Source: Naegleria gruberi
Lineage: Eukaryota
DNA length: 64,000 nt
NCBI GenBank assembly: GCA_000004985.1
Contig: GG738853.1
Strand: one strand, 5' to 3'
The notes under the pieces were generated by a model. It searched no databases and was not told where the DNA came from. It worked only from the letters and a program-made list of their open reading frames with translations. This document shows, in pieces, positions 1,409-63,837 of the stretch (position 1 is the stretch's first letter; each line of letters opens with the position of its first letter). The position numbers were made by a program, and so were the translations under genes.

Positions 1409-1936
1409 CCAAGAAGCAGGTGTATTTGCTATTTATCATCACCCAATGAATTATCATACGATAATAATAACATTTAAATTATTAATTATTGAAAAATTCA
1501 TCATCACACCATTCCGGAATATGTTGTTATCCAAATAATAATAATAATAACATCATCATCCACACATCATCATCAAACCAGCAAACTTACGCGCCAAATT
1601 ACGAAGTATTTTACTCTTCCGAAAATTCATTCAATTTCCACGTTATCACGTTGTGCTATTTTTTTTGAGATTTAAGAAAGGAAATTTTGTAAAAATAATT
1701 GTTATCGACATCCTTTTTAAAATAGATAACAATAAACTTTGAACAAATCAATGAAATTATTAATTTGAAATTTAAGAATTTTTTCATTCCGTACCTTTGA
1801 GGTATTATCATTAATCTAATTGGAACTTGGAACATGAATCATATCAATTATTTATACTCAACTTAAGGGCGATACAATAGTTAGTAAATAATGATTATTA
1901 TTTATTGATCAATTCTCACATAACGTGCTAGATGAT

Positions 1937-2875
1937 TTACAACTTCTTGCATGTCTTTCTCTTGATACAAATCTTCTTCAAGATTGACTTGCAACACTTC
2001 TTCTTTCCACCAACCAATTTGAATTTCTTACAAATCTTCTTTCCCTTAGAACGTTTCAAACACTTCTTATAATACTTCTTCTTGATACATCTTGGTGGAA
2101 TTGTAATTGACTTGGCACAATACTTCTTCTTATTATATTTGACACATTTGGAGAGAGTCTTCTTGTGCTTACAGAACTTGATGGTCTTATGCTTGGCACA
2201 GAAGAATTTCTTCTTAATGAGACAACACTTCTTGAAAGATTTTCTTTCCTTACAGTATTTAACCTTCTTATACTTGGCACATTTCTTAGCCCAGGAGACA
2301 ATCTTGCACTTTTTAACATATCTACATTTGGCGACCTTCTTATTGTAAGAATCAACAGTGTACTTGTCGCAGACCTTCTTCTTTTCACACTTCTTGATTG
2401 GAACCTTCTTGAATTTCTTGCAGACCTTCTTAACACCCTTCTTGACGCACTTGTTGACAATCTTGTGCTTGGCACAGAATTTCTTGAAACCCTTCTTGAC
2501 GCAAATCTTCTTAGTTCCATAAGAATCACAAACTTTCCAGTGCTTCTTCTTGGCACATCCAACAGTCTTGTATGCATGCAAGACACACTTCTTTGTTGCC
2601 TTACTATACTTGTCACACTTGGAATATTTCTTATGTTTGAGACATTTACCAGCACCGACAATGGCATATTGATCACAGACCTTCTTTTGACCAACGAGTT
2701 TGTGTTTCAAACACTTCTTAATCCACTTGTGCTTTAAACATTTTCTCTTGCAAACCTTTGGCTTGTGATACTTGTCAACTACTGGAGGTTTGGTTTGATA
2801 GCTGTCGCTTGCTTGAACTGAAAGGATTGCAATCAACAATAGAATTGCAATTGAAACGATTATATTTGTTTTCAT
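1937..2875 (-). CDS. Secreted Lys/Cys-rich low-complexity protein, paralog A (312 aa, signal peptide MKTNIIVSIAILLLIAILSVQA)
   Basis: Real ATG at 2875 and TAA at 1937. About 35% Lys and 13% Cys in a repeating C-x-K-x-K-K pattern. It is about 94% nt identical to the + strand gene at 62251..63222. Confidence 0.75.
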   Translation of the reverse strand: MKTNIIVSIAILLLIAILSVQASDSYQTKPPVVDKYHKPKVCKRKCLKHKWIKKCLKHKLVGQKKVCDQYAIVGAGKCLKHKKYSKCDKYSKATKKCVLHAYKTVGCAKKKHWKVCDSYGTKKICVKKGFKKFCAKHKIVNKCVKKGVKKVCKKFKKVPIKKCEKKKVCDKYTVDSYNKKVAKCRYVKKCKIVSWAKKCAKYKKVKYCKERKSFKKCCLIKKKFFCAKHKTIKFCKHKKTLSKCVKYNKKKYCAKSITIPPRCIKKKYYKKCLKRSKGKKICKKFKLVGGKKKCCKSILKKICIKRKTCKKL

Positions 2876-7938: not shown

Positions 7939-8421
7939 GGATTACTATTGCATTGTGTCGCTTTCAAGTGCTTTTTAGTGTTGGAGGTCGATTTCTTTGG
8001 CGAAAGGCCTTTTCATTTTACCATTCTGATTCAGTGCGTCAATCAATGAGGATGAATTCAATACCTTATGAAATATTTGAAAGAAATTGCAGAGAATGAG
8101 TGGGAATAGTTCAGATTTTGAAGAAATATTGTTGGATGGTCATTTGTAAATATTCCATTTTTGAAACTTTTGCAATCTGAATATATCAAAAAAGAAGGTT
8201 GTTTAAAATTGGTTTTTGTGAACACTATAAAAATGAGAAAGTAGACGAAAAGTTTCCAAAGTTCGAGATCTCGGGAGATAAAAGTATTTTTGATTAATCC
8301 AATATGCATTATTTCACATCTTCTAGCCAGTACAATTACGTCGATCTATTTGTCAATCTTCAAATTGAAAACTGAAGATGCCAACAATAAACATCATATT
8401 GTGAATAAAATCAAAAGGAAT

Positions 8422-8494
8422 CGCCCACCGTGGGGGTCGAACCCACGACCACAAGGTTAAGAGCCTTGCGCTCTACCGACTGAGCTAGACGGGC
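8422..8494 (-). tRNA. tRNA-Lys(CUU): tRNA-Lys (anticodon CUU), 73 nt
   Basis: Reverse complement reads GCCCGTCTAGCTCAGTCGGTAGAGCGCAAGGCTCTTAACCTTGTGGTCGTGGGTTCGACCCCCACGGTGGGCG. It has a canonical cloverleaf, anticodon loop CTCTTAA, and an oligo-T run immediately 3' on the coding strand. Confidence 0.9.
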
Positions 8495-8586: not shown

Positions 8587-10065
8587 TTACAAAAGATTGA
8601 ACATGAGATACACCACAATGGTAAGAAGAATATACACAGGACCATTGTTGGTAAAAACACTATTTGACTCACTAACAAGAGCTCTTACATCTAATGTATT
8701 GTTTTCATCCATGTAGCCATCAAATTCCAAAACCATTTGATCCATTAAAGAATCAACATTTACAGATCTGGCCATCATTGTGGATAAACTAGCATCTGTA
8801 GTTACTCCATTCTTATCCACAACAATAGAAATTGGACAAGGCATATCGAGAATGCAACCACATTTCAATCCTTCCCAACTGTTCACAAATCTCTGAGCTA
8901 GGAATGTGAATAAATTATTGGCTACTCCAGTGTCAGGACTTGCATATTTCAGAGTGATAGACTTGTCGAGGAATATTCTGGCAGGTGCCACAACTGCGTA
9001 ATGTTTACAATAGAGACGAGTGGAAGCAAATGCAACACTGGAAACTTGTGGTTGAAAAACAGCAGCTCTGTACAAGTTGAGTTTTTCAAGGTTTGCTTGA
9101 TCATTGCTTCTTACCATTGGATTTCCTTTTGGAAGAAGAGCAATCGGTGCTTTTTGTTTCAATTTAGCATGAATCTCATCCAATGCCAATGACTGAGTCA
9201 ATTGACCATTATTGGCCAAATCAGGGGCCATGTATGGAGTGCAATTTAGAGCACGTGCCATTGCAACAGCTAACAATCTATTATCAGAACCATTTACCAA
9301 AGTTTGAGTTTGAGCAGTTCCTCCAAGGGCTTTCAAATTAGCTGCAGTATTTTGACAAGTTCTACCTGCCAATGTCTTGTTTGTACTAATGATATAGGAT
9401 GTAACAACGTTATCTGATTGATCCATGTCAACAATACCAAAATCTCTGACAGTCATACATGATTTTCCATCAAGTGCAGTGCCAAGTGCTGGAACTGGTG
9501 GATTAAAGAAGGAACCAGGATCATTGGTTGCTTTTTCCTTAATAATTTGACTGATTGATGTTTGAACAGCTTCAAAAAATTGCTTTCCATTGCATGAGGC
9601 GAATTGACCAAAAATATCATTTGCTCCATCAATACCATTGACACAATTACCTTGAGCAAGTGAATTACTGGAATCAATTAAAGTAAGAGAACCAGCATTT
9701 GTACCAAACCACAATCCAACAATTGCTGTTTTTGGAAAGACAGGAACAGTTGGTTTGATTGCTGGTTGAGTATTTTGAGTAATTACCAAAGGATTATAAA
9801 TCATGAAGGATCTTGTCTCTGGAACGAAAATAACACCCTCAACAAATGATTGTTGATCAGCAGCAGTCATGACACAAGGGCCATTGGCAGGATTGACAGC
9901 TCTCAAAATATAAGGAGTTGCCAATCCTTGAGGAGTGAGTGGATTTGGAGGAACAATAAGAGCACAATCAGGATTAGCACCCTTTACAATTCTGATATAA
10001 TGTACAAGAATAATGGCAAGACAAATACTTGTCTTGAGTGAGTTGGAAACGATCATGTTGAGCAT
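8587..10065 (-). CDS. Secreted Gly/Asn/Thr/Ala-rich protein with an N-terminal signal peptide and a C-terminal hydrophobic GPI-anchor-like tail (about 492 aa), family unknown
   Basis: First ATG in a good context is at 10065 (MLNMIVSNSLKTSICLAIILVHYIRIVKG is signal-like). The ORF-track start at 10215 is upstream read-through. The C-terminus ...SNSVFTNNGPVYILLTIVVYLMFNLL* is a short polar stretch followed by a hydrophobic end, as in a GPI signal. GC content is higher than in neighbouring genes. Confidence 0.6.
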   Translation of the reverse strand: MLNMIVSNSLKTSICLAIILVHYIRIVKGANPDCALIVPPNPLTPQGLATPYILRAVNPANGPCVMTAADQQSFVEGVIFVPETRSFMIYNPLVITQNTQPAIKPTVPVFPKTAIVGLWFGTNAGSLTLIDSSNSLAQGNCVNGIDGANDIFGQFASCNGKQFFEAVQTSISQIIKEKATNDPGSFFNPPVPALGTALDGKSCMTVRDFGIVDMDQSDNVVTSYIISTNKTLAGRTCQNTAANLKALGGTAQTQTLVNGSDNRLLAVAMARALNCTPYMAPDLANNGQLTQSLALDEIHAKLKQKAPIALLPKGNPMVRSNDQANLEKLNLYRAAVFQPQVSSVAFASTRLYCKHYAVVAPARIFLDKSITLKYASPDTGVANNLFTFLAQRFVNSWEGLKCGCILDMPCPISIVVDKNGVTTDASLSTMMARSVNVDSLMDQMVLEFDGYMDENNTLDVRALVSESNSVFTNNGPVYILLTIVVYLMFNLL

Positions 10066-10438
10066 TTGTGAATGGTATTCAATGGTTTGATTTGAATAAC
10101 AACAGTTTGTTTTTGTTTTTTTTTGATATTGTTCACTAGTCCAATAAAGTGCCGACAATTTAACAGAAATTGCACAAATCATGTATGTTATCAAAAAGGA
10201 AAAGTAGGTTCTCATAAAATTGAATGAAATAAAGGATGAAAGGTTGAGAGATATACGAATATTAACGAATGAGGAGTTTGGATAATGATCTATCGCGAAA
10301 AACTTTCTCTATCTTTATAATTGATTGATTTGGTACACACAGATCCATCATAAATCATTGCAAGTAATAAAAACCTAATTTTCATGTTGAATCTGCAATA
10401 AAACCGAAGATGCAAAAGAGAAAATAAAAAACATGAAT

Positions 10439-10511
10439 CGCCCACCGTGGGGGTCGAACCCACGACCACAAGGTTAAGAGCCTTGCGCTCTACCGACTGA
10501 GCTAGACGGGC
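10439..10511 (-). tRNA. tRNA-Lys(CUU): tRNA-Lys (anticodon CUU), second identical copy
   Basis: 73/73 identity to the 8422..8494 copy, in the same orientation, and followed by an oligo-T run. Only about 5 nt of flank on each side is shared between the copies. Confidence 0.9.
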
Positions 10512-15493: not shown

Positions 15494-15574
15494 GCAGGGG
15501 TTCCCGAGTGGTCAAAGGGGGTAGACTCAAGTTCTACTGCGCAAGCTTCGTGGGTTCAAATCCCTCCTTCTGCA
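15494..15574 (+). tRNA. tRNA-Leu(CAA): tRNA-Leu (anticodon CAA), class II with a long variable arm, 81 nt
   Basis: GCAGGGGTTCCCGAGTGGTCAAAGGGGGTAGACTCAAGTTCTAC...GTGGGTTCAAATCCCTCCTTCTGCA. It has a 3-bp D stem, anticodon loop CTCAAGT, and TTTT at 15577-15580. There is one U-U mismatch in the T stem (positions 50/64). Confidence 0.7.
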
Positions 15575-15785
15575 ACTTTTGCTTCTTTATCCCTTAATCT
15601 TTTTGATAAGACGACCATTTTCAAATATTTATTGTTAGTATGATGTCTAGTTTCTATGGTAAAATTTTTGTGCAACTCCAAATAGACTCTATAAAGATAA
15701 TCAATAAAGATAACGCTGACCTCAAATATTCCAGCTGAAATACCTTGAAGATTTGAAGAGCTACTAAAACATTTAATTTCCAAAA

Positions 15786-15903
15786 GACTACAGCACCACA
15801 GGTTCCCAAGTTGTCTCCAACCTCAGTACTGATGTGGCTCGACGATGCTTAACTTCTCAAATCGGACGGGATGAGGTGCATTCATCGTGATATGGCCGTA
15901 GCC
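15786..15903 (-). rRNA. 5S rRNA: 5S ribosomal RNA gene (118 nt), dispersed copy 1
   Basis: Reverse complement GGCTACGGCCATATCACGATGAATGCACCTCATCCCGTCCGATTTGAGAAGTTAAGCATCGTCGAGCCACATCAGTACTGAGGTTGGAGACAACTTGGGAACCTGTGGTGCTGTAGTC matches the universal 5S consensus (box A/C region, loop E). A T-run terminator follows (plus-strand caaaa at 15781-15785). Confidence 0.85.
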
Positions 15904-43501: not shown

Positions 43502-45058
43502 AAGTTCTTTCAAACATTCTTGAGCATCAACAACAAACTTTTCTTCAGTGTATCTATCAGCACTCTTTCTGGCATTTTCTTGAATTTCTTTCATTTCTTC
43601 AGTGTGATATCTTGACAAAATATCATTGATTGCTTGTGAGTATTCCTTTTCAGTTTCAGCCAAGAAACCAGTCTTGTTTGGAGTGACGATATCAGATTTT
43701 GGTCCTCCAGAATTGTGCGAAAGAGTTATCAAACCAGCAGCCATATATTCAACAACACAAATTCCAAAATGTTCATTCCACATTGAGTGAATTCCTATCA
43801 TAGATTCACCAAGCTTTTCTAATAATTGAGAGAATGGAGCGTTAGTGATAATTTCAAATTGGGATGATGGAATTTCCATATCTTGTGCAAGTTTTTTAAG
43901 ATAGTCAACTCTTGCACTATCTTCTTCATTTCTACAACCTCCCAACAGAATAAGTTTGACATCCTTTTTAGAAATTCTTGTACTTCCTCCCAAATCATAT
44001 TCTTCATTTTTTAAGAATGAAGAGAATGCTCTAACTTGCAGAGCATGATCCTTTTCAGGTCTAAATTGACCAACGGACAAAATGTATGGCTTTCTTGTTT
44101 CATGAGCTAATGGAACAGTTGTTAAATGATCAACATTGCATGGAGGATAGACAATTTCAATATTCAAACGAGATTTTTTGATCTTTCTATTTCTTAACCA
44201 CCACAATGATTTAACATGTCCATGAGTCCAAGTGGAATTTACCATAACCATATCACAGAAGTATCCAGCAAAGAAGCCATAGAGAGCTGAGAAAATCTTG
44301 TAATAAGTCAATTTAAGACTTGTTTTTAAAGTACTGTTAGTAACACTGTCATCATTATTGTAAGCTGTCACTCTTTTAACAACTCTTTCCAACATATCAG
44401 TACTAATGGTTGGATAATGAGTATAAGATCCAACCTTACATCCAGCCAATTTAGCAACAAAGTAAGTAAATGGCAATCCATGAGTATCAATGAAAACATC
44501 AGGTGTATAGGTGCTAACAGCTTCCCATCCTAACATGATACTTGCCAAGCTTTGTCCAATAAGTGTTAATCTTGCTTTTGAAGCTGCTTCCAATAAATCT
44601 CTATTATATAAAAACACAACTTGAACAGGTCTATCCAATTCAATATTAAAAATCTTTTTAACCTTATCAGTAAGAATTTTTTCATATTGTTCTTCAGTGA
44701 TATTTTGAAAAGTTCCATTTTCATTAAGAGGTTTTCCAGAAAAGAGAACAACATGAACATCATCTCTCAATTGTTGAAGTGCTTTAATTATCCACCACAA
44801 AACACGTTCTCCTCCGGCACATCCTTCACTATATGGATGCATAAAAGCAACAACAGTTTCATCTTTTGGTGTTCGGAATTTACTTCTACAAGCCTTCTTT
44901 ATCGATGGGAAATAATTTACTCTGAGATAAATAATCACAAAAATTAAACTGATCACACTCAACACTGATTGATACCACATCAAATGAAACAGTGATGATT
45001 TTAAAATAAAATCAGGAATAATTCCCGATAGAAAAGTCTCTGGTGAAAAGAAGGTCAT
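43493..45058 (-). CDS. ALG11: ALG11-type GT4 glycosyltransferase (GDP-Man:Man3GlcNAc2-PP-dolichol alpha-1,2-mannosyltransferase), 521 aa
   Basis: N-terminal TM, then VAFMHPYSEGCAGGERVLWWIIKAL (compare ALG11 [25 protein letters not shown]). The GT4 C-terminal domain has the EHFGI motif (NEHFGICVVEYMAAGL). The last two codons and the stop overlap the Kelch gene 3' end. Confidence 0.8.
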   Translation of the reverse strand: MTFFSPETFLSGIIPDFILKSSLFHLMWYQSVLSVISLIFVIIYLRVNYFPSIKKACRSKFRTPKDETVVAFMHPYSEGCAGGERVLWWIIKALQQLRDDVHVVLFSGKPLNENGTFQNITEEQYEKILTDKVKKIFNIELDRPVQVVFLYNRDLLEAASKARLTLIGQSLASIMLGWEAVSTYTPDVFIDTHGLPFTYFVAKLAGCKVGSYTHYPTISTDMLERVVKRVTAYNNDDSVTNSTLKTSLKLTYYKIFSALYGFFAGYFCDMVMVNSTWTHGHVKSLWWLRNRKIKKSRLNIEIVYPPCNVDHLTTVPLAHETRKPYILSVGQFRPEKDHALQVRAFSSFLKNEEYDLGGSTRISKKDVKLILLGGCRNEEDSARVDYLKKLAQDMEIPSSQFEIITNAPFSQLLEKLGESMIGIHSMWNEHFGICVVEYMAAGLITLSHNSGGPKSDIVTPNKTGFLAETEKEYSQAINDILSRYHTEEMKEIQENARKSADRYTEEKFVVDAQECLKELLI

Positions 45059-45487
45059 TTTTTTTGATGTTTCTAATTAATTTAAGATTTGAAAATTTGG
45101 AGATGTATTTAACATAATTTTAGTGGCACGTGTTTGAATGAAAAACACGAATATCAAGATTTTTGTTTTGTTACAGGTGTTTGTGTTGTTGTTCCTTGTT
45201 ATTCCTCACGATGAGGAGATTATTAGCCAATCTTTATGGCTTGACCTTTATCGAACTTTTTTATCAAAAACTCTCAAATTCCAATCAGACCACTCTAGAC
45301 GCTCTACTGCACTCAATCTTAACCCAAATCCTTCAAATGTTGCACAGAGTCCTTAATTGCCTAAAAGTGTGGTCTCAGGTCGTTATTGATACAAGATACT
45401 TTGATAAACTTACACCTTTTATAATCGAAACCTTTCTCTCACCGTTCAACAGACACCAAGTTTAAATTTCGAAGGTTATTATCGTAA

Positions 45488-45559
45488 GGGACCATGGTCT
45501 AGTGGTATGATTCTCGCTTTGGGTGCGAGAGGCCGTGGGTTCGATTCCCACTGGTCCCC
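45488..45559 (+). tRNA. tRNA-Pro(UGG): tRNA-Pro (anticodon UGG), 72 nt
   Basis: GGGACCATGGTCTAGTGGTATGATTCTCGCTTTGGGTGCGAGAGGCCGTGGGTTCGATTCCCACTGGTCCCC. The D-arm and anticodon arm are identical to canonical eukaryotic tRNA-Pro, with anticodon loop TTTGGGT. Confidence 0.85.
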
Positions 45560-45716
45560 TTTCCTTTCATGTAACTTTGAAAATTCCAACTTTAATATGT
45601 TTTGCTTATTGGAATTTTGTATAAAATTCGTGTTATTGCCTTAGTTCAATAAATTTAGTTTAAGGTTTAAATTGAGTTTTTTGGGTACCTCCAATAAAAT
45701 TAATTGTAAAACAATC

Positions 45717-45782
45717 CTCCCATGCCGGGAATTGACCCTCCTGGGTGAAAGCCAGGTATCCTAGCCATTGGACTACACGGGA
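45717..45782 (-). pseudogene. tRNA-Glu(UUC) pseudogene: 66 nt, with a 6-nt deletion removing the 5' half of the T stem
   Basis: Identical to the intact tRNA-Glu at 63313..63384 except that ACCCGG is missing (GGGAATTGA-CCCTCCTGG against GGGAATTGAACCCGGACCTCCTGG). About 45 bp of 5' flank, including a TATA-like element, is also shared. Confidence 0.6.
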
Positions 45783-45809
45783 TCTCATTCACAATGAGAA
45801 TATTCTCAT

Positions 45810-45822
45810 TTTATAGATAAAT
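45810..45822 (-). promoter_or_regulatory. TATA-like upstream element (TTTATCTATAAAA on the tRNA strand) about 30-40 nt 5' of the tRNA-Glu pseudogene
   Basis: The same element (TTTTATCTATGAAA) sits at the same distance upstream of the intact tRNA-Glu at 63414..63424. The conserved 5' flank suggests an upstream Pol III promoter element. Confidence 0.3.
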
Positions 45823-45991
45823 GCTGAAAACTCTCAGATTTTAGAAAACCTCGAGTTCCCCTCTCAAAATAAGACTCAAAAGCCTTAAAAGAATGGTTAT
45901 ACGATCTTGGTACCTGGTAATAAGTACCATCACTGATATTTATCGAAGTGATGAAAATTTGGGTGTACCCAAACGCCTTAATAAAACAAAA

Positions 45992-46109
45992 GACTACAGC
46001 ACCACAGGTTCCCAAGTTGTCTCCAACCTCAGTACTGATGTGGCTCGACGATGCTTAACTTCTCAAATCGGACGGGATGAGGTGCATTCATCGTGATATG
46101 GCCGTAGCC
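45992..46109 (-). rRNA. 5S rRNA: 5S ribosomal RNA gene (118 nt), dispersed copy 2
   Basis: 118/118 identical to the copy at 15786..15903. Its flanking sequence is unrelated, and a T-run terminator follows. Confidence 0.85.
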
Positions 46110-46202
46110 ATTGATAATATCAAAATCTTAATACTGAATAAGAAACCGAATCTTGTACATTAAACATTAATAAGAATAGCGAACTGTTAATTTACGTAAG
46201 CA

Positions 46203-46268
46203 AAAAAGGAGTAGCAAATCTAGGTTTCGATCCTAGGACCTATGGGTTATGAGCCCATCGCGCTGCGC
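46203..46268 (-). pseudogene. Initiator-type tRNA-Met (CAU)-like gene with a truncated D-arm (66 nt); probable pseudogene
   Basis: Reverse complement AGCAAATTGGCGCAGCGCGATGGGCTCATAACCCATAGGTCCTAGGATCGAAACCTAGATTTGCTA. Initiator hallmarks are present: a perfect 7-bp acceptor stem, a GGG/CCC anticodon stem, the CAU anticodon, and an A54/A60 T-loop (GATCGAAAC). But only 3 nt lie between the D-stem halves, so about 6 nt of the D-loop are missing. Confidence 0.5.
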
Positions 46269-46860
46269 CAATTTGCTTTTCATTTACCTATTAAAATTTA
46301 GTCCAACTTTCAAGCGGTTTAACATGGCCTTTGAGACTTGATCATATTTCTGATTTGTAAGTGTTTCTATATCCATAGTTATCCAATTACATTATTCAAC
46401 ATTCTATCAATCCTCTCTAATCCTAAACAATCACTTCGAATATTAGTTGACTGCCAAGCTCGAATTTGATTCTTAGTCAACAAAATCAATTTGACCGGTT
46501 TAAAAAGTATTTTCCGGTCCTCTCTTCCACCAATCACTCTCTTTACTGACTCGAAAGACGACGTACCTCACAGTTCATACAGTCAAAGACTGTAGCGGGA
46601 CAGTCGCCATATTCCTGGCAGGCTTCCCGTCTAGTAAAATTAATTGAAAAGTTTCAAATTGTTGTAAATCACAACTACACTGTAAATTTGATTCTTTATT
46701 GTTTTAAAGTTGTGCATTTGAAACTCGTTCTTTACAAAGAAGGAATTCTAATATTAAGGTAAAACTAACTTTAAATAATATTTTCAAATACTATACACTT
46801 AATTAAATTTGAAAATATTATTTATATAAATAATAATGAAAAAAAATAAACAATTGGTAT

Positions 46861-48240
46861 TTACATATTTACAGTTTGTTGATTGACTCGTTGTTGAGCT
46901 TGAATTCTTGTTGAGAAACCGTTGAGTCCTCTCTGTTCAACTCTAAATGAAGTGGCACTACAAGCTAATTTCACACTTTCAAATACTTGTTCGCTTGAAA
47001 ATGAAAGTTTGTTGGAAGTATTTGCTGTTGAATTCCTCACAAGTAACTCAGCAACAAAACAAGATAGAAAAGTATCACCAGCTCCAGTTTCGTCCAAAAC
47101 TCTAACTGGTTTGTAGGAAGAGAAATATTTAACAATTGGTGTTGAACTATTTGATCTCAACCTAGGCAAAGACAATTGAATATTTTCTCCTTCGCAAGCA
47201 CAAACACAACCAGATGATCCCATTGTAACTGTTACAATTGGAAATCCATAATTCTTTTGAATATGGTATGCACATTCTTCAGGTGTCATTTCAGAGCTAT
47301 TTGGAATACATTTCTTTGCTTCATCATGATCTAATTTAATGACTGAAATAATCTTACTCAAAGTTTCCAACACTTCCTCTAAATATTCGATAGTATTATG
47401 AGAAACTTGACCACTTTCTGTATCAATTTTTCTCAAATAACCCTGAATATCAGTACAAACTAGAAAATCTGACTGAATTTCTTTAAAAACCTGATTTGTA
47501 AAAGCATTCACAAAGTGATGATCAAACTCTGCAGCTACTGGAACAAAGAGCAATGCTCTAACTTGATGTAATTCTCTAATCATTAAATTAATTGATTCAT
47601 CTTGTTTGAAAATACTTCCTCTATCTCTACAATTCAAGCTTCTACTGTTAGAAGCATTTTCAAGTGAATCAAATGGAGGATATAATAATTCATATTGAGT
47701 TAATTTAGATGATTGATCTTCCTCAACAAGAATCATGTCAAACATTTTCATTCTTTTTAAATGTTTGGCTTCTGACAGATCAGGTTGGAATGTCTTGTGA
47801 AATTGCTTATTAATTATTGGAGATTCACATGCAACCATTGTTATTGAATCATCTTCATTAGCAGCATGTTCCAACCCATTGAAAAACTGACTCAAAATCA
47901 TCACATCATGTTTTCCAATTTTAGTCAATATTTTAGGATGAATTTTAAAATGTTGATTATTAGAATAATACATTTGATTATCAATATTCTTCATATAATG
48001 TTGAAAGGCTAAACATCCAAACATGACTGATCCTCCGAGTGATTTGTTGACTATTTTTCTATATCCTTGATAATGAATTGAATTAGCATCTTCATCGGAA
48101 TTTAATTCTTGTTCAATGTGATGATGTTGTGATGATGAAATACCATTCGGAGTATGTTGGTGATGATCTTTCTCAAAGGTAATAATTGTATCTTGAGTGA
48201 TATTACCAACGAATATTACTTGTTTTTCATTCAACATCAT
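46861..48240 (-). CDS. pfkB-family carbohydrate kinase (ribokinase-like fold) with large insertions, 459 aa
   Basis: N-terminal VIFVGNITQDTII and the C-terminal pfkB signature VLDETGAGDTFLSCFVAEL. Single exon, ATG at 48240. Confidence 0.65.
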   Translation of the reverse strand: MMLNEKQVIFVGNITQDTIITFEKDHHQHTPNGISSSQHHHIEQELNSDEDANSIHYQGYRKIVNKSLGGSVMFGCLAFQHYMKNIDNQMYYSNNQHFKIHPKILTKIGKHDVMILSQFFNGLEHAANEDDSITMVACESPIINKQFHKTFQPDLSEAKHLKRMKMFDMILVEEDQSSKLTQYELLYPPFDSLENASNSRSLNCRDRGSIFKQDESINLMIRELHQVRALLFVPVAAEFDHHFVNAFTNQVFKEIQSDFLVCTDIQGYLRKIDTESGQVSHNTIEYLEEVLETLSKIISVIKLDHDEAKKCIPNSSEMTPEECAYHIQKNYGFPIVTVTMGSSGCVCACEGENIQLSLPRLRSNSSTPIVKYFSSYKPVRVLDETGAGDTFLSCFVAELLVRNSTANTSNKLSFSSEQVFESVKLACSATSFRVEQRGLNGFSTRIQAQQRVNQQTVNM

Positions 48241-58127: not shown

Positions 58128-58352
58128 TATTGATTTAATGAGTTTGATTATACTTTGAAAATCCAGTGGAAGTTTCCGTTCAAGAAGATCAAAATTCTTG
58201 ACAGACCTTGTAGCTATTTCAAGTCGAATGTGATCGATACAGATGATAATTATCAATTTTATTAAGGAATGGTTGACAACTCTTTAACAGAAAATAAATA
58301 ATTAGTAAGCTAGGACCTTAGTGCTTCATATTTTTTGATCATCTTTCAAGAA

Positions 58353-58423
58353 GCATTAGTAGTGTAACGGTATCATACCAGCCTTCCAAGCTGGTGACCC
58401 GGGTTCGACTCCCGGCTAATGCA
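58353..58423 (+). tRNA. tRNA-Gly(UCC): tRNA-Gly (anticodon UCC), 71 nt
   Basis: GCATTAGTAGTGTAACGGTATCATACCAGCCTTCCAAGCTGGTGACCCGGGTTCGACTCCCGGCTAATGCA. Anticodon loop CTTCCAA. Close to canonical eukaryotic tRNA-Gly-UCC. T-run at 58431-58434. Confidence 0.85.
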
Positions 58424-58616
58424 ATTCAATTTTACAGTTGATAGAAATAAGTTTTTCTCTTTTTTCATTAATTAAAACCTTAAACAGCAGTTCAAAATGA
58501 AATTAATAAAGTGCAAATTGAATAAATTGCTATTATTTGATCCTTTGAAAATTGTAACTGCTCAGAACCACTTGTAGATTCCAAAGTTCATTAAATAATT
58601 AACAGAATTGACTTGT

Positions 58617-58652: not shown

Positions 58653-59027
58653 GCTACTTAATCTTCACAAAAGAAGAATAAGAAGAATAAGAAAATTATG
58701 AAGGAATTTGTGAGAAAAAACATGTAAACAAATGGTTTCATCTATTGACGAGGATGAGTATGAACAATATTCAATCAATTCTAAATTCTAAATATTTAAT
58801 AAATTGTTTAACGAAATGGATTGATTGTCTGTTGATGGTTTTTGGAGTGCATGAGAGGATTTACACCAGCTGAGCTCTATCTATCTCTTGGATTATTAAG
58901 GCGAGGAATCTACTAACCAATACCCTCAGAAATGGTTTCCAACAACTTGTAAAAAGCACTAATCAATCTTCAAGAAACGGTGCCATTCTTAAAGACATGT
59001 TGATATCAGCTAAACTAAAATTGAATT

Positions 59028-59098
59028 GCATTAGCCGGGAGTCGAACCCGGGTCACCAGCTTGGAAGGCTGGTATGATACCGTTACACTACTAATGCT
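59028..59098 (-). tRNA. tRNA-Gly(UCC): tRNA-Gly (anticodon UCC), inverted identical copy
   Basis: Exact reverse complement of the 58353..58423 gene. About 28 bp of 5' flank (CATATTTTTTGATCATCTT(T/A)CAAGAA) and about 15 bp of 3' flank are duplicated as well. Confidence 0.85.
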
Positions 59099-60229
59099 TC
59101 TTGTAAGATGATCAAAAAATATGAACCACCAAGTGGTAGCCATGATAATTTTCATGGAAACAATTATATTTTTTGGTAATTAATTCGATATCCAATACTT
59201 GAACATAGAAATGCGTATGGAACTAATAATTATAATTAATGTTTCAATAAAATATACTTGCTTCCGTATAACATGTCAGATTCCTTTGTTGTCACAGATC
59301 TAACATGTAAAGAAAGATACAAGCAGAGCTGAAAATTACCTTTTTTGTTGTTCTTTCAAAGCGTACAAATGAAATTGAAACTTCATGGGTGAAAAAATTT
59401 TACTGTTTTGCATTCATTCTTTGTTCTAACAGTAAAGATTCCAATAGGTAAATTAACATGTCAATATTGTTGCAATGTGTTGTTATCACCTGGCATAACA
59501 ATATCTGATATTAAATCCATTCTTATGACCATGTTCGTGATGTAAGCTTCAAATGTCATTGTACAAAATTAATCTTGTCATTCCAATTCCAACCATTGAA
59601 CCATATCATGTAAGTTTTAGTTGATTCACAACCTCCCAAAACGAAAGAAATCTCCAAATAATGTTCCATCGCCATTGACAAAAATAGAGCTATTTCGAAG
59701 AGCTTGAAAGATTACTCTCATACAGTTTCGAATAGGATTGCTGCACAGCAAAACTATTGCACAACAAACTTCTTTGCAAAAAAGTATGACTAATAAGCAC
59801 ACAACCAACAACTCTTCTGATTCTCAATTATTTTCCTCATCAATCCCACCTATTCACTTCATTCCACCTACTACTACTGTCATCATTAATACAACTAATG
59901 TAATAACAAACGCAGCGAATGTGAATAATAATAATATGGTAAATGTTGATTTGCTTCTTTCTAATGAGAGTGCCACCAGAAACATTGGTAATTTAGTTCC
60001 GCATGAATTAAATAATTTTTTTCCAATGTGATGATTAATTATGATGACCAATGGAGTCCAGCCTTGCCAATCACATCTGAAAGCCTTGAAGCATACAGAC
60101 AAATGTAAATGTGTATATTATAGGATGCGTGAGAATATCGTACGCATATGTTTCTGCTTTTTTGAATACTAATAATATTCATCAAATGTTAAATTTCTTC
60201 TCGAGATGATGGAAGATAAAACTCCCTTT

Positions 60230-61432: not shown

Positions 61433-62250
61433 GAATTATTGAAAAATATAATTGAGGATTCTAAATGAGAGCGAGCTGTTGTTTACAAGATGTGATGTTG
61501 TGAAACTAAAAGAGTAAAGTTTATTGACATTAAGCCAACATTATTATTACATACTTTGTTGATCTACCATCAGTTGCAAATTGTAAAAAATCGTAGTGGA
61601 AAATAGTCTGCAGAAACACAAAAAAAAACGAACGTACGAATATATTGATGAACATTCTTACAACACCATCAGTAACGTGGAGATAAATAATAGTTTAAAC
61701 ACCAAACATAAGAAGGGCAATAAGTAAACAACTGGTGGTCCAAAACACCCATTTTTTTATCTGACTAAAGGGGAGATGGATGCAATTAGTAAAGCTGTGG
61801 ATAGTGAAAAGCAGAAGTTGTATCAACAAACAACATTTTAAAATGTAACAACGATAGAAGGATCCACAAGTTTATCAATCATTAAAAGAAATCATCCAAA
61901 TCTCTGTCCTCCCTTTCTTGTTCTTAATCACTATTTTTTTACAAACGAGTTTAGTCTAGACTGCAAAAACCAGACTGCCAATTGGTCACAAAACATTTAA
62001 CAGTATTCTCTCATGAAATTCGAATACATGAATTAAATGAAATGGTTCAGAAAGATATGAATGAAATGATTGATAATGAGAATACTTTGGAAAGCTGAGT
62101 TGATATTTGAATAGTAAATTGAATCAGTTTTCTATCCAAATTTGGAACCTTACATCCAACTATTTTCAGCTTGTCCCAAATGAAAAACAATTCGAAATGG
62201 TTTAAATTAGCACCATCTGGTTGAACTATCCAATCCAACAAAAACAAAAA

Positions 62251-63222
62251 ATGAAAGCAAATCTAATCTTTTCAATTGCAATTCTACTCTTGCTTGCAAT
62301 CCTCTCAGTTCAAGCAAGTGATAGCTATCAAACTAAACCTCCAGTTGTCGTAGTTGACAAGTATCACAAGCCAAAGGTTTGTAAGAGAAAATGCTTAAAG
62401 CATAAGTGGATTAAGAAGTGTTTGAAACATAAACTCGTTGGTCAAAAGAAGGTCTGTGATCAATATGCAATTGTCGGTGCTGGCAAATGTCTCAAACATA
62501 AGAAATATTCCAAATGTGACAAGTACAGTAAGCCAACAAAGAAGTGTGTCTTGCATGCATACAAGATTGTTGGATGTGCCAAGAAGAAGTACTGGAAAGT
62601 TTGCGATTCTTATGGAACTAAGAAGATTTGCATCAAGAAGGGTTTCAAGAAGTTCTGTGCCAAGTACAAGATTATCAACAAGTGTTTCAAGAAGGGTTTC
62701 AAGAAGGTCTGTAAGAAATTCAAGAAGGTTCCAATCAAGAAGTGTGAAAAGAAGAAGATCTGTGACAAGTACACTGTTGATTCTTACAATAAGAAGGTTG
62801 CCAAATGTAGATATGTTAAAAAGTGCAAGATTGTCTCCTGGGCAAAGAAATGTGCCAAGTATAAGAAGGTTAAATACTGTAAGGAAAGAAAATCTTTCAA
62901 GAAGTGTTGTCTCATTAAGAAGAAATTCTTCTGTGCCAAGCATAAGACCATCAAGTTCTGTAAACACAAGAAGACTCTCTCCAAATGTGTCAAATATAAC
63001 AAGAAGAAGTATTGTGCCAAGTCAATTGTCATTCCACCAAGATGTATCAAGAAGAAGTATTATAAGAAGTGTGTGAAACGTTCAAAGGGAAAGAAGATTT
63101 GTAAGAAATTCAAATTAGTTGGTGGAAAGAAGAAGTGTTGCAAGTCAATTAAGAAGAAGATTTGTATCAAGAGAAAGACATGTAAGAAGCCAACAAAACC
63201 AATCGTCAAACCATCCTTGTAA
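62251..63222 (+). CDS. Secreted Lys/Cys-rich low-complexity protein, paralog B (323 aa)
   Basis: ATG at 62251 (MKANLIFSIAILLLLAILSVQA). The ORF-track start at 62221 is a TTG. About 94% nt identity to the complement(1937..2875) gene, including about 100 bp of promoter (TTCGAAA(T)GGTTTAAATT...CAACAAAA(A)CA(G)AAAAATG). The C-terminus differs (KKPTKPIVKPSL* against KKL*). Confidence 0.75.
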   Translation: MKANLIFSIAILLLLAILSVQASDSYQTKPPVVVVDKYHKPKVCKRKCLKHKWIKKCLKHKLVGQKKVCDQYAIVGAGKCLKHKKYSKCDKYSKPTKKCVLHAYKIVGCAKKKYWKVCDSYGTKKICIKKGFKKFCAKYKIINKCFKKGFKKVCKKFKKVPIKKCEKKKICDKYTVDSYNKKVAKCRYVKKCKIVSWAKKCAKYKKVKYCKERKSFKKCCLIKKKFFCAKHKTIKFCKHKKTLSKCVKYNKKKYCAKSIVIPPRCIKKKYYKKCVKRSKGKKICKKFKLVGGKKKCCKSIKKKICIKRKTCKKPTKPIVKPSL

Positions 63223-63312
63223 AATAGTTGACAAATTTTTCTCTAATTACCTGTAAAATAACAAGAGAATTAATAAAGTATTGAACTTTAACAAAATTCA
63301 ATGCAAAATATC

Positions 63313-63384
63313 CTCCCATGCCGGGAATTGAACCCGGACCTCCTGGGTGAAAGCCAGGTATCCTAGCCATTGGACTACACGGGA
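63313..63384 (-). tRNA. tRNA-Glu(UUC): tRNA-Glu (anticodon UUC), 72 nt
   Basis: Reverse complement TCCCGTGTAGTCCAATGGCTAGGATACCTGGCTTTCACCCAGGAGGTCCGGGTTCAATTCCCGGCATGGGAG. A 7-bp acceptor stem (one G-U pair), anticodon loop CTTTCAC, and a T stem-loop CCGGG-TTCAATT-CCCGG. Confidence 0.85.
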
Positions 63385-63837
63385 TCTCATTCATGATGAA
63401 AACATTCCCATTTCATAGATAAAACACACAAATTGACCATAATCTGTTGGCACTTGCAGTGAACAACCACTCCCAGTTGCCATCAAGACTGGTTGTAGTT
63501 TCCACTTGATTTTAAATCTTGTTCTCTTAGTATTTACGTTGTACATCGGAGCCTTCATACACGCTCTTTATGTTATTTTAATGAAGGATTAAATAAATTG
63601 ATTTTATTAACATCTAGACTTGTCCCTAGTTGTAAAATGATATACGAGTTAGGCATAGGGCAAGGTTGTGAACATTGTTATGTCCGTGATGATTCGGTCC
63701 TTTTTATTAGATCCGTCATCAAAATAACCATGTCAATAACCATCTTTTTGACATGTTCAAGTTGTTGGTTGGTTACAAACACACACTCATTTAGTCAGTT
63801 TTCAGCAATCAATGAAAAACTATCATCTTTAAAAAAA

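Follow-up and report, generated by a model that had tools for sequence, protein, structure and literature searches.

The 64-kb window of Naegleria gruberi DNA (the whole stretch that was analysed) is gene-dense, with a GC content of about 32%, and contains nine tRNA or tRNA-like genes and two 5S rRNA genes. Four of these are found in a 790-bp Pol III island (45488-46277), in which Rfam identifies a tRNA-Pro, a tRNA-Glu-like element, a 5S rRNA and an initiator tRNA-Met-like element, ARAGORN calling the first and the last of these. The island lies in a 1.8-kb spacer between the stop codon of a PfkB-domain gene (46861) and the start codon of ALG11 (45058). The open reading frame at 46864-48240 (minus strand) is an exact match to N. 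gruberi XP_002680588, and the ALG11 and clathrin-light-chain reading frames have 100% identity to N. gruberi entries. All four island elements score above their Rfam gathering thresholds, and those listed in a preliminary description of this DNA were all found again with Rfam and Infernal alignments. The features of the island and the related copies elsewhere in the window are as follows.

15494-15574, convergent with the second 5S gene: tRNA-Leu(CAA), 210 nt from that gene
15785-15903, minus strand: second 5S rRNA gene, 119/119 identical to the island copy
45488-45559, plus strand: tRNA-Pro(UGG), intact cloverleaf (ARAGORN; Rfam tRNA 62.4 bits; A box 10/11, B box 11/11)
45717-45782, minus strand: tRNA-Glu(UUC)-derived copy, 66 nt (Rfam tRNA 38.9 bits, gathering score 29)
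45983-45990, minus strand: Pol III terminator of the 5S gene, read from the sequence as the last U of the gene followed by TTT, G and TTTT (TTTT-G-TTTT)
45991-46109, minus strand: 5S rRNA gene, full length (Rfam 5S_rRNA 105.4 bits, model positions 1-120)
46202-46207, minus strand: T6 Pol III terminator of the initiator tRNA-Met-like gene, 4 nt past its 3' end, read from the sequence
46212-46277, minus strand: initiator tRNA-Met-like copy, 66 nt (Rfam tRNA 53.3 bits; ARAGORN Met(CAT) at 46211-46277)
63313-63384, minus strand: intact tRNA-Glu(UUC) paralogue, the reference for the short copy (ARAGORN; Rfam 67.0 bits)
45693-45821 and 63290-63423, minus strand: duplication common to both Glu loci (blastn 85.9% over 135 columns)

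With the exception of the tRNA-Pro, the Pol III genes of the window are all followed within 10 nt by a T4-T6 run. On the 3' side of the tRNA-Pro(UGG) (45560-45605), the first T4 run is about 40 nt away and is preceded by TTTCCTTTC; a long 3' trailer or a terminator of a non-canonical type is possible for this gene. A permissive Rfam scan (E<=0.5) across the whole window found no further decayed Pol III relics, and the island spacers showed no mobile-element signatures or structured repeats, only short repeats at chance level. Near the island, an imperfect 53-nt palindrome with a 20-nt perfect core is present just downstream of the PfkB stop codon (46772-46835). On the opposite strand over the 5' end of ALG11 (44985-45078, plus strand), weak matches to the C/D-box snoRNAs SNORD77, snR77 and snoR31 were recorded (21-23 bits, E 0.9-4.8), which are far below the gathering scores and probably due to chance.

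The 5S gene of the island is full length, scoring above the gathering score and ending in a T-run terminator, with the initiator-like gene 102 nt upstream and the Glu-like copy 208 nt downstream. The second 5S gene lies 30.2 kb away, and the earlier figure of 118/118 identical positions at 15786-15903 was essentially right. Homology between the two copies is confined to 148 columns around the gene, the flanks being unrelated past about 20 nt upstream and 4 nt downstream. As both copies have a tRNA-type gene within a few hundred bp, the dispersed and tRNA-linked arrangement previously proposed for 5S genes holds for the two copies of the window, two being the number on which it is based. The distance to the tRNA-Leu, given before as about 210 bp, was measured as 210 nt; the tRNA-type gene that follows the 3' end of a 5S gene is thus 210 nt away in one case (15575-15784) and 208 nt in the other (45783-45990), with unrelated intervening sequences and different tRNA orientations. 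These nearly equal distances could be due to chance or to nucleosome-scale spacing. There is no tRNA-like sequence upstream of the 5S copy at 15785-15903, and therefore the 5S gene is independent of an upstream element.

The initiator tRNA-Met-like copy has the sequence AGCAAAU-UG-GCGCAGCGC-G-AUGGG-CUCAUAA-CCCAU-AGGUC-CUAGG-AUCGAAA-CCUAG-AUUUGCU-A, in which all the initiator hallmarks are present. These include A1:U72, the three pairs G29-G31:C39-C41, the anticodon CAU and the T-loop GAUCGAAAC with A54 and A60. The three remaining stems are fully paired (7/7, 5/5 and 5/5). As previously noted for the T-loop and the anticodon stem, these initiator features, read from the sequence, are combined with a D-loop of only 3 nt: the Infernal alignment leaves six model positions of the D-loop empty, corresponding to the G18/G19 segment (GNGGNA). 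The D-arm consists of a stem of at most 3 bp and a 3-nt loop, instead of the canonical loop of 7-8 nt with G18 and G19, and a complete four-arm cloverleaf is not formed. The tRNA elbow is built by the pairing of G18 and G19 with psi55 and C56, and loss of these two G residues removes the D-loop/T-loop contacts used by processing enzymes.

For comparison, initiator genes were collected from metagenome contigs with the pattern TGGCGCA N{0,7} GCGNGNTGGGCTCATAACCCANAGGTC, which accepts any D-loop insert of 0-7 nt. In the 120 loci returned, all 123 initiator-type genes carry an insert of 6 nt (86 genes) or 7 nt (37 genes) with the form GNGG(N)NA; a shorter insert was not found in any of these 123 metagenome genes, none of which is from Naegleria. 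An exact 39-mer from the 3' part of the initiator had no matches in the metagenome contigs. The nearest metagenome initiators have only compensated stem-pair differences from the Naegleria copy, with GCGGAA or GUGGAA as the insert. With the Rfam model applied to the Naegleria copy, intact initiators used as controls reach 63.6-68.2 bits, which is 10-15 bits more than the 53.3 bits of that copy. The loss in the D-loop is aberrant, because all 123 comparable genes keep the insert and the intact ones score higher. The commonest insert is GCGGAA, which is also carried by the closest relatives; if the parent gene had this insert, a 3-nt direct repeat (GCG) would lie on both sides of the deletion, which would fit slippage or repair mediated by microhomology. 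An otherwise perfect copy, with its stems and T6 terminator preserved, fits recent damage, and intact initiator genes elsewhere in N. gruberi would make this one redundant. The initiator-like copy is probably a pseudogene, possibly still transcribed.

The Glu-like element was not called by ARAGORN. In the Infernal alignment it has lost the 5' strand of the T stem and one U of the T-loop, three T-stem pairs being broken, so that the residual T arm has a 3-bp stem and a 6-nt loop and, here too, the four-arm cloverleaf is incomplete. The preliminary description attributed this to the absence of ACCCGG from the T stem; the 5' strand is indeed gone, but not through a clean 6-nt deletion, since aligning the copy with the intact paralogue leaves two gaps, of 5 nt and 1 nt, inside 9 nt; a 6-nt deletion with one substitution accounts for the difference equally well. 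GG flanks the 5-nt gap, constituting a microhomology. The match to the intact gene at 63313-63384, located 17.6 kb from the short copy, proved to be exact over the remaining body, with 0/66 substitutions. The similarity continues into the flanks. On the 5' side, 33/39 positions are identical and a TATAAAA/TATGAAA motif is included; on the 3' side, the homology covers about 24 nt and contains a T4 run (45708-45711). The shared unit of about 130 bp thus includes flanking sequence, and therefore the copy originated by duplication at the DNA level and not by retroposition of a mature tRNA. The flanks have diverged by about 15%, and the adjacent 5' flank has 8/41 mismatches versus none in the 66 positions of the body (Fisher p=3e-4). 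An unsubstituted body beside a diverged flank suggests that the damage is recent; it is also possible that constraint or gene conversion acted until very recently, or that constraint continues. The Glu-like copy is probably a pseudogene.

Other tRNA genes of the window also occur within repeats. Two identical tRNA-Gly(UCC) genes are part of a 118-nt inverted repeat with 97% identity (58317-58434 and 59016-59133, with 581 nt between the arms), which looks like a recent local inverted duplication including flanks. Similarly, tRNA-Lys(CUU) is present as a direct repeat of two identical genes, separated by 2 kb (8403-8494 and 10420-10511) and bracketing an open reading frame (8587-10215), and both pairs look like short local duplications. 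Additionally, the window has a large inverted repeat with arms 59 kb apart (1943-2902 and 62224-63189), composed of 840 nt at 96% identity and an adjoining 125 nt at 84%. Each arm has an open reading frame lacking a Pfam match (1937-2875, minus strand, and 62221-63222, plus strand). The intact tRNA-Glu is located 124 nt outside the right arm, whose left counterpart lacks a mirrored Glu copy on its outer side.

The two short genes score above the threshold of Rfam tRNA, yet their alignments confirm that arms are missing, as the preliminary description had judged. They are the only defective genes among the nine tRNA-type genes in 64 kb, and both lie inside the same 0.6 kb; the other seven are intact. 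By simple consensus scoring, each short gene has 9/11 matches for both the A box and the B box, the intact neighbours having 8-11/11. The idea that the deletions kill the internal promoters was rejected on these scores. The earlier statement that the deletions destroy a stem-loop is accordingly correct for the RNA fold and does not extend to the internal promoters, which are not clearly destroyed. Binding of TFIIIC by the short genes is plausible from these box matches, and the genes may still be bound and transcribed; the clear damage is to the RNA fold. The view of the locus as a Pol III cluster in decay is borne out by structure-breaking microdeletions in two of the four genes, with the remaining stems paired, terminators present and the paralogue of the Glu copy preserved in the same window.

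To compare the region with relatives, ten loci (L121-L130) were fetched through the orthologues of ALG11, PfkB and clathrin light chain from N. fowleri, N. lovaniensis, Willaertia magna and other relatives. Neither the island nor any 5S gene is present in these ten loci, and a blastn search of the island against them gave only one chance-level match of 34 nt. The ALG11-Kelch gene pair is kept in N. fowleri (L121) and in a Naegleria relative with 74% identity (L122). In L122, the 1.46 kb upstream of ALG11 has no Pol III gene and instead contains coding sequence unrelated to PfkB; the upstream neighbour of ALG11 thus differs, and the break in synteny falls exactly at the island. The PfkB loci of N. 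lovaniensis (L123), N. fowleri (L124, L125), W. magna (L126) and a metagenomic relative (L127) are also without the island. The only Pol III gene there is a tRNA-Val(AAC) upstream of the PfkB orthologue, in the two loci showing it (9735-9808, plus strand, in L123 of N. lovaniensis; 1469-1542, minus strand, in L125 of N. fowleri). Its orientation relative to PfkB is opposite in the two species, which suggests a small inversion of the tRNA gene. No Pol III gene was found in the three clathrin-light-chain loci (L128-L130), the counterpart of the second 5S/tRNA-Leu site. Altogether, 126.8 kb from the relatives contain two orthologous tRNA genes and no 5S gene, compared with nine tRNA-type and two 5S genes in 64 kb of N. 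gruberi. Because the island is missing from these loci and synteny is broken there, the short genes have no orthologue with which they can be compared. It was within the N. gruberi lineage that this region gained its Pol III genes, by a DNA-level duplication of about 130 bp in the sole case that can be tested, that of the tRNA-Glu. This points to Pol III genes that arise and die rapidly in this lineage, the island having been built up by such insertions where synteny is broken.

N. gruberi is reported to have 924 tDNAs, about tenfold more than the 91 and 65 of kinetoplastids (Bermudez-Santana et al. 2010, PMC2888827), and with this number gene death and redundancy are to be expected. As in other expanded eukaryotic tDNA families (PMC2888827), the window contains copies from local duplication, some of them with disabling lesions, and its tDNAs cluster. 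Unlike in those families, the lesions in N. gruberi are single short deletions in otherwise perfect copies, at a very early point of decay, and strike the two loops that form the elbow.

A dispersed, tRNA-linked organisation of 5S genes is of an already known kind. In Leishmania, the 5S genes are scattered outside tandem arrays and adjoin tRNA genes (review PMC6562600), and Naegleria, which like Leishmania belongs to the Discoba, resembles it in having dispersed 5S genes adjacent to tRNA genes. However, Leishmania has 9-11 5S copies and about 91 tDNAs versus about 924 tDNAs in N. gruberi (PMC2888827), and the 5S-tRNA linkage of the N. gruberi window is not conserved in the retrieved sister-species loci. 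Dispersed 5S genes have also been described for Yarrowia, S. pombe and Acanthamoeba. In Yarrowia, the 5S follows a tRNA gene after 4-7 nt, without a terminator between them, and the two are co-transcribed (PMC2566860). The N. gruberi island is similar to Yarrowia in its dispersed 5S and in the tRNA-type gene just upstream on the same strand, and differs in the 102-nt spacer with a T6 run, which makes them separate units. In the literature searched, no description of the nuclear 5S or initiator tRNA genes of Naegleria was found.

An initiator tRNA gene 30-140 nt from a 5S gene is also found in arrays of marine eukaryote metagenome contigs (L066, L067, L071 and others). These arrays differ from the Naegleria island, which has four genes in a protein-coding region, in that every few kb of them accommodate dozens of intact tRNA genes, along with U2, U6, SRP RNA and rDNA. 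Such very dense non-coding RNA arrays, with 230 Rfam matches in 46 kb, were observed in ten contigs (L019, L020, L037, L040, L066, L067, L068, L071, L087 and L102), which consist mostly of tRNA genes tens of nt apart with 5S, U2, U6, SRP RNA, tRNA-Sec and an rDNA unit.

Here it is proposed, as the explanation that is most likely and in our view quite probable, that two young pseudogenes form part of a Pol III cluster specific to the N. gruberi lineage. In the spacer that separates the PfkB-domain gene from ALG11, this lineage would have acquired four independently terminated Pol III genes. The tRNA-Pro(UGG) and the 5S would be working genes, and the tRNA-Glu(UUC) and initiator tRNA-Met would be redundant copies of paralogues, each recently struck by a short deletion. 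In one of them the D-loop has lost its G18/G19 part, and in the other the T stem has lost its 5' strand; these are the two partners of the elbow. With both elbow partners hit, the transcripts should misfold and be discarded, leaving the copies as young pseudogenes. This is ordinary turnover within a very large tRNA gene family, and no new kind of element. Some observations fit this explanation less well. Random decay does not explain why both defective genes lie within 0.6 kb, the perfect Glu body with diverged flanks could reflect continuing constraint or gene conversion instead of recency, and the A and B boxes and T-run terminators kept in both short genes may allow binding and transcription.

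Alternatively, the truncated tRNA-like genes would have been retained for the recruitment of TFIIIC, and possibly TFIIIB, as ETC-like sites, boundaries or elements of nucleosome phasing beside the 5S, or for the production of non-canonical small RNAs; a use as boundary, condensin or TFIIIC sites had been raised in the preliminary description. Such retention is unlikely. It would agree with the 9/11 matches of both boxes and the terminators of the two short genes, with the unsubstituted Glu body beside a flank diverged by about 15%, and with the position of the defective copies on either side of the 5S, 102 nt upstream and 208 nt downstream. However, the island is missing beside the orthologues of both flanking genes in every retrieved locus of the relatives, and this lack of conservation speaks against a chromosomal role under selection at this site. 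Furthermore, a tRNA-like flank of this kind is missing upstream of the other, identical 5S gene, and retained boxes are indistinguishable from those of a young pseudogene that has not yet lost them. As at yeast ETC sites and tDNA boundaries, the short elements with a B box could bind TFIIIC without making a useful RNA, but ETC sites have only the B box, whereas the short N. gruberi genes keep A boxes and terminators and have no positional conservation. That the elbow-less genes are alive, being bound by TFIIIC/TFIIIB and transcribed, and that they insulate or phase the 5S or yield stable 66-nt tRNA-like RNAs, is quite improbable; if true, the tDNA complement of N. gruberi would include a functional class of truncated nuclear tRNA-like genes. 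It is very improbable that the gene with the short D-loop is a genuine, functional and lineage-specific non-canonical initiator of N. gruberi, as might be thought from its perfect identity elements outside the D-loop and its strong T6 terminator. The G18/G19 segment is kept in all 123 initiator-type genes from diverse eukaryotes, the D-loop/T-loop contacts are lost, and we know of 3-nt D-loops only in some organellar tRNAs.

The two 6-nt gaps might instead have arisen as artefacts during cloning or assembly, at GC-rich hairpins, or might be confined to one haplotype of a polyploid strain, as both are within GC-rich tRNA arms that form strong hairpins. This is decidedly unlikely, given that the seven other tRNA genes of the window are intact despite equally GC-rich arms, that the Glu lesion is a compound of 5 and 1 nt and no simple dropout, and that two independent artefacts inside 0.6 kb are not to be expected. 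There is hardly any likelihood that the initiator-like gene and the 5S form a dicistronic unit of the Yarrowia type, with the tRNA promoter driving the 5S. The two genes share a strand, and the tRNA-like one precedes the 5S, but their spacer is far from the 4-7 nt of Yarrowia (PMC2566860), a T6 terminator follows 4 nt after the tRNA-like gene, and the identical 5S at 15785 has no upstream tRNA. A fusion of the Yarrowia type is excluded by the 102-nt spacer and the T6 run within it, which separates the initiator-like gene from the 5S.

The explanation of the locus as a young Pol III cluster with two pseudogenes has as its loose ends the co-location of the only two defective copies, their possible TFIIIC binding and the perfect Glu body. 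For annotation, it implies that both short genes are to be labelled as pseudogenes, and not as tRNA-Met and tRNA-Glu. For the biology of N. gruberi, the island would present two Pol III copies caught at the first step of decay, and at least these two of its 5S genes are dispersed single genes beside tRNA genes, as in Leishmania.
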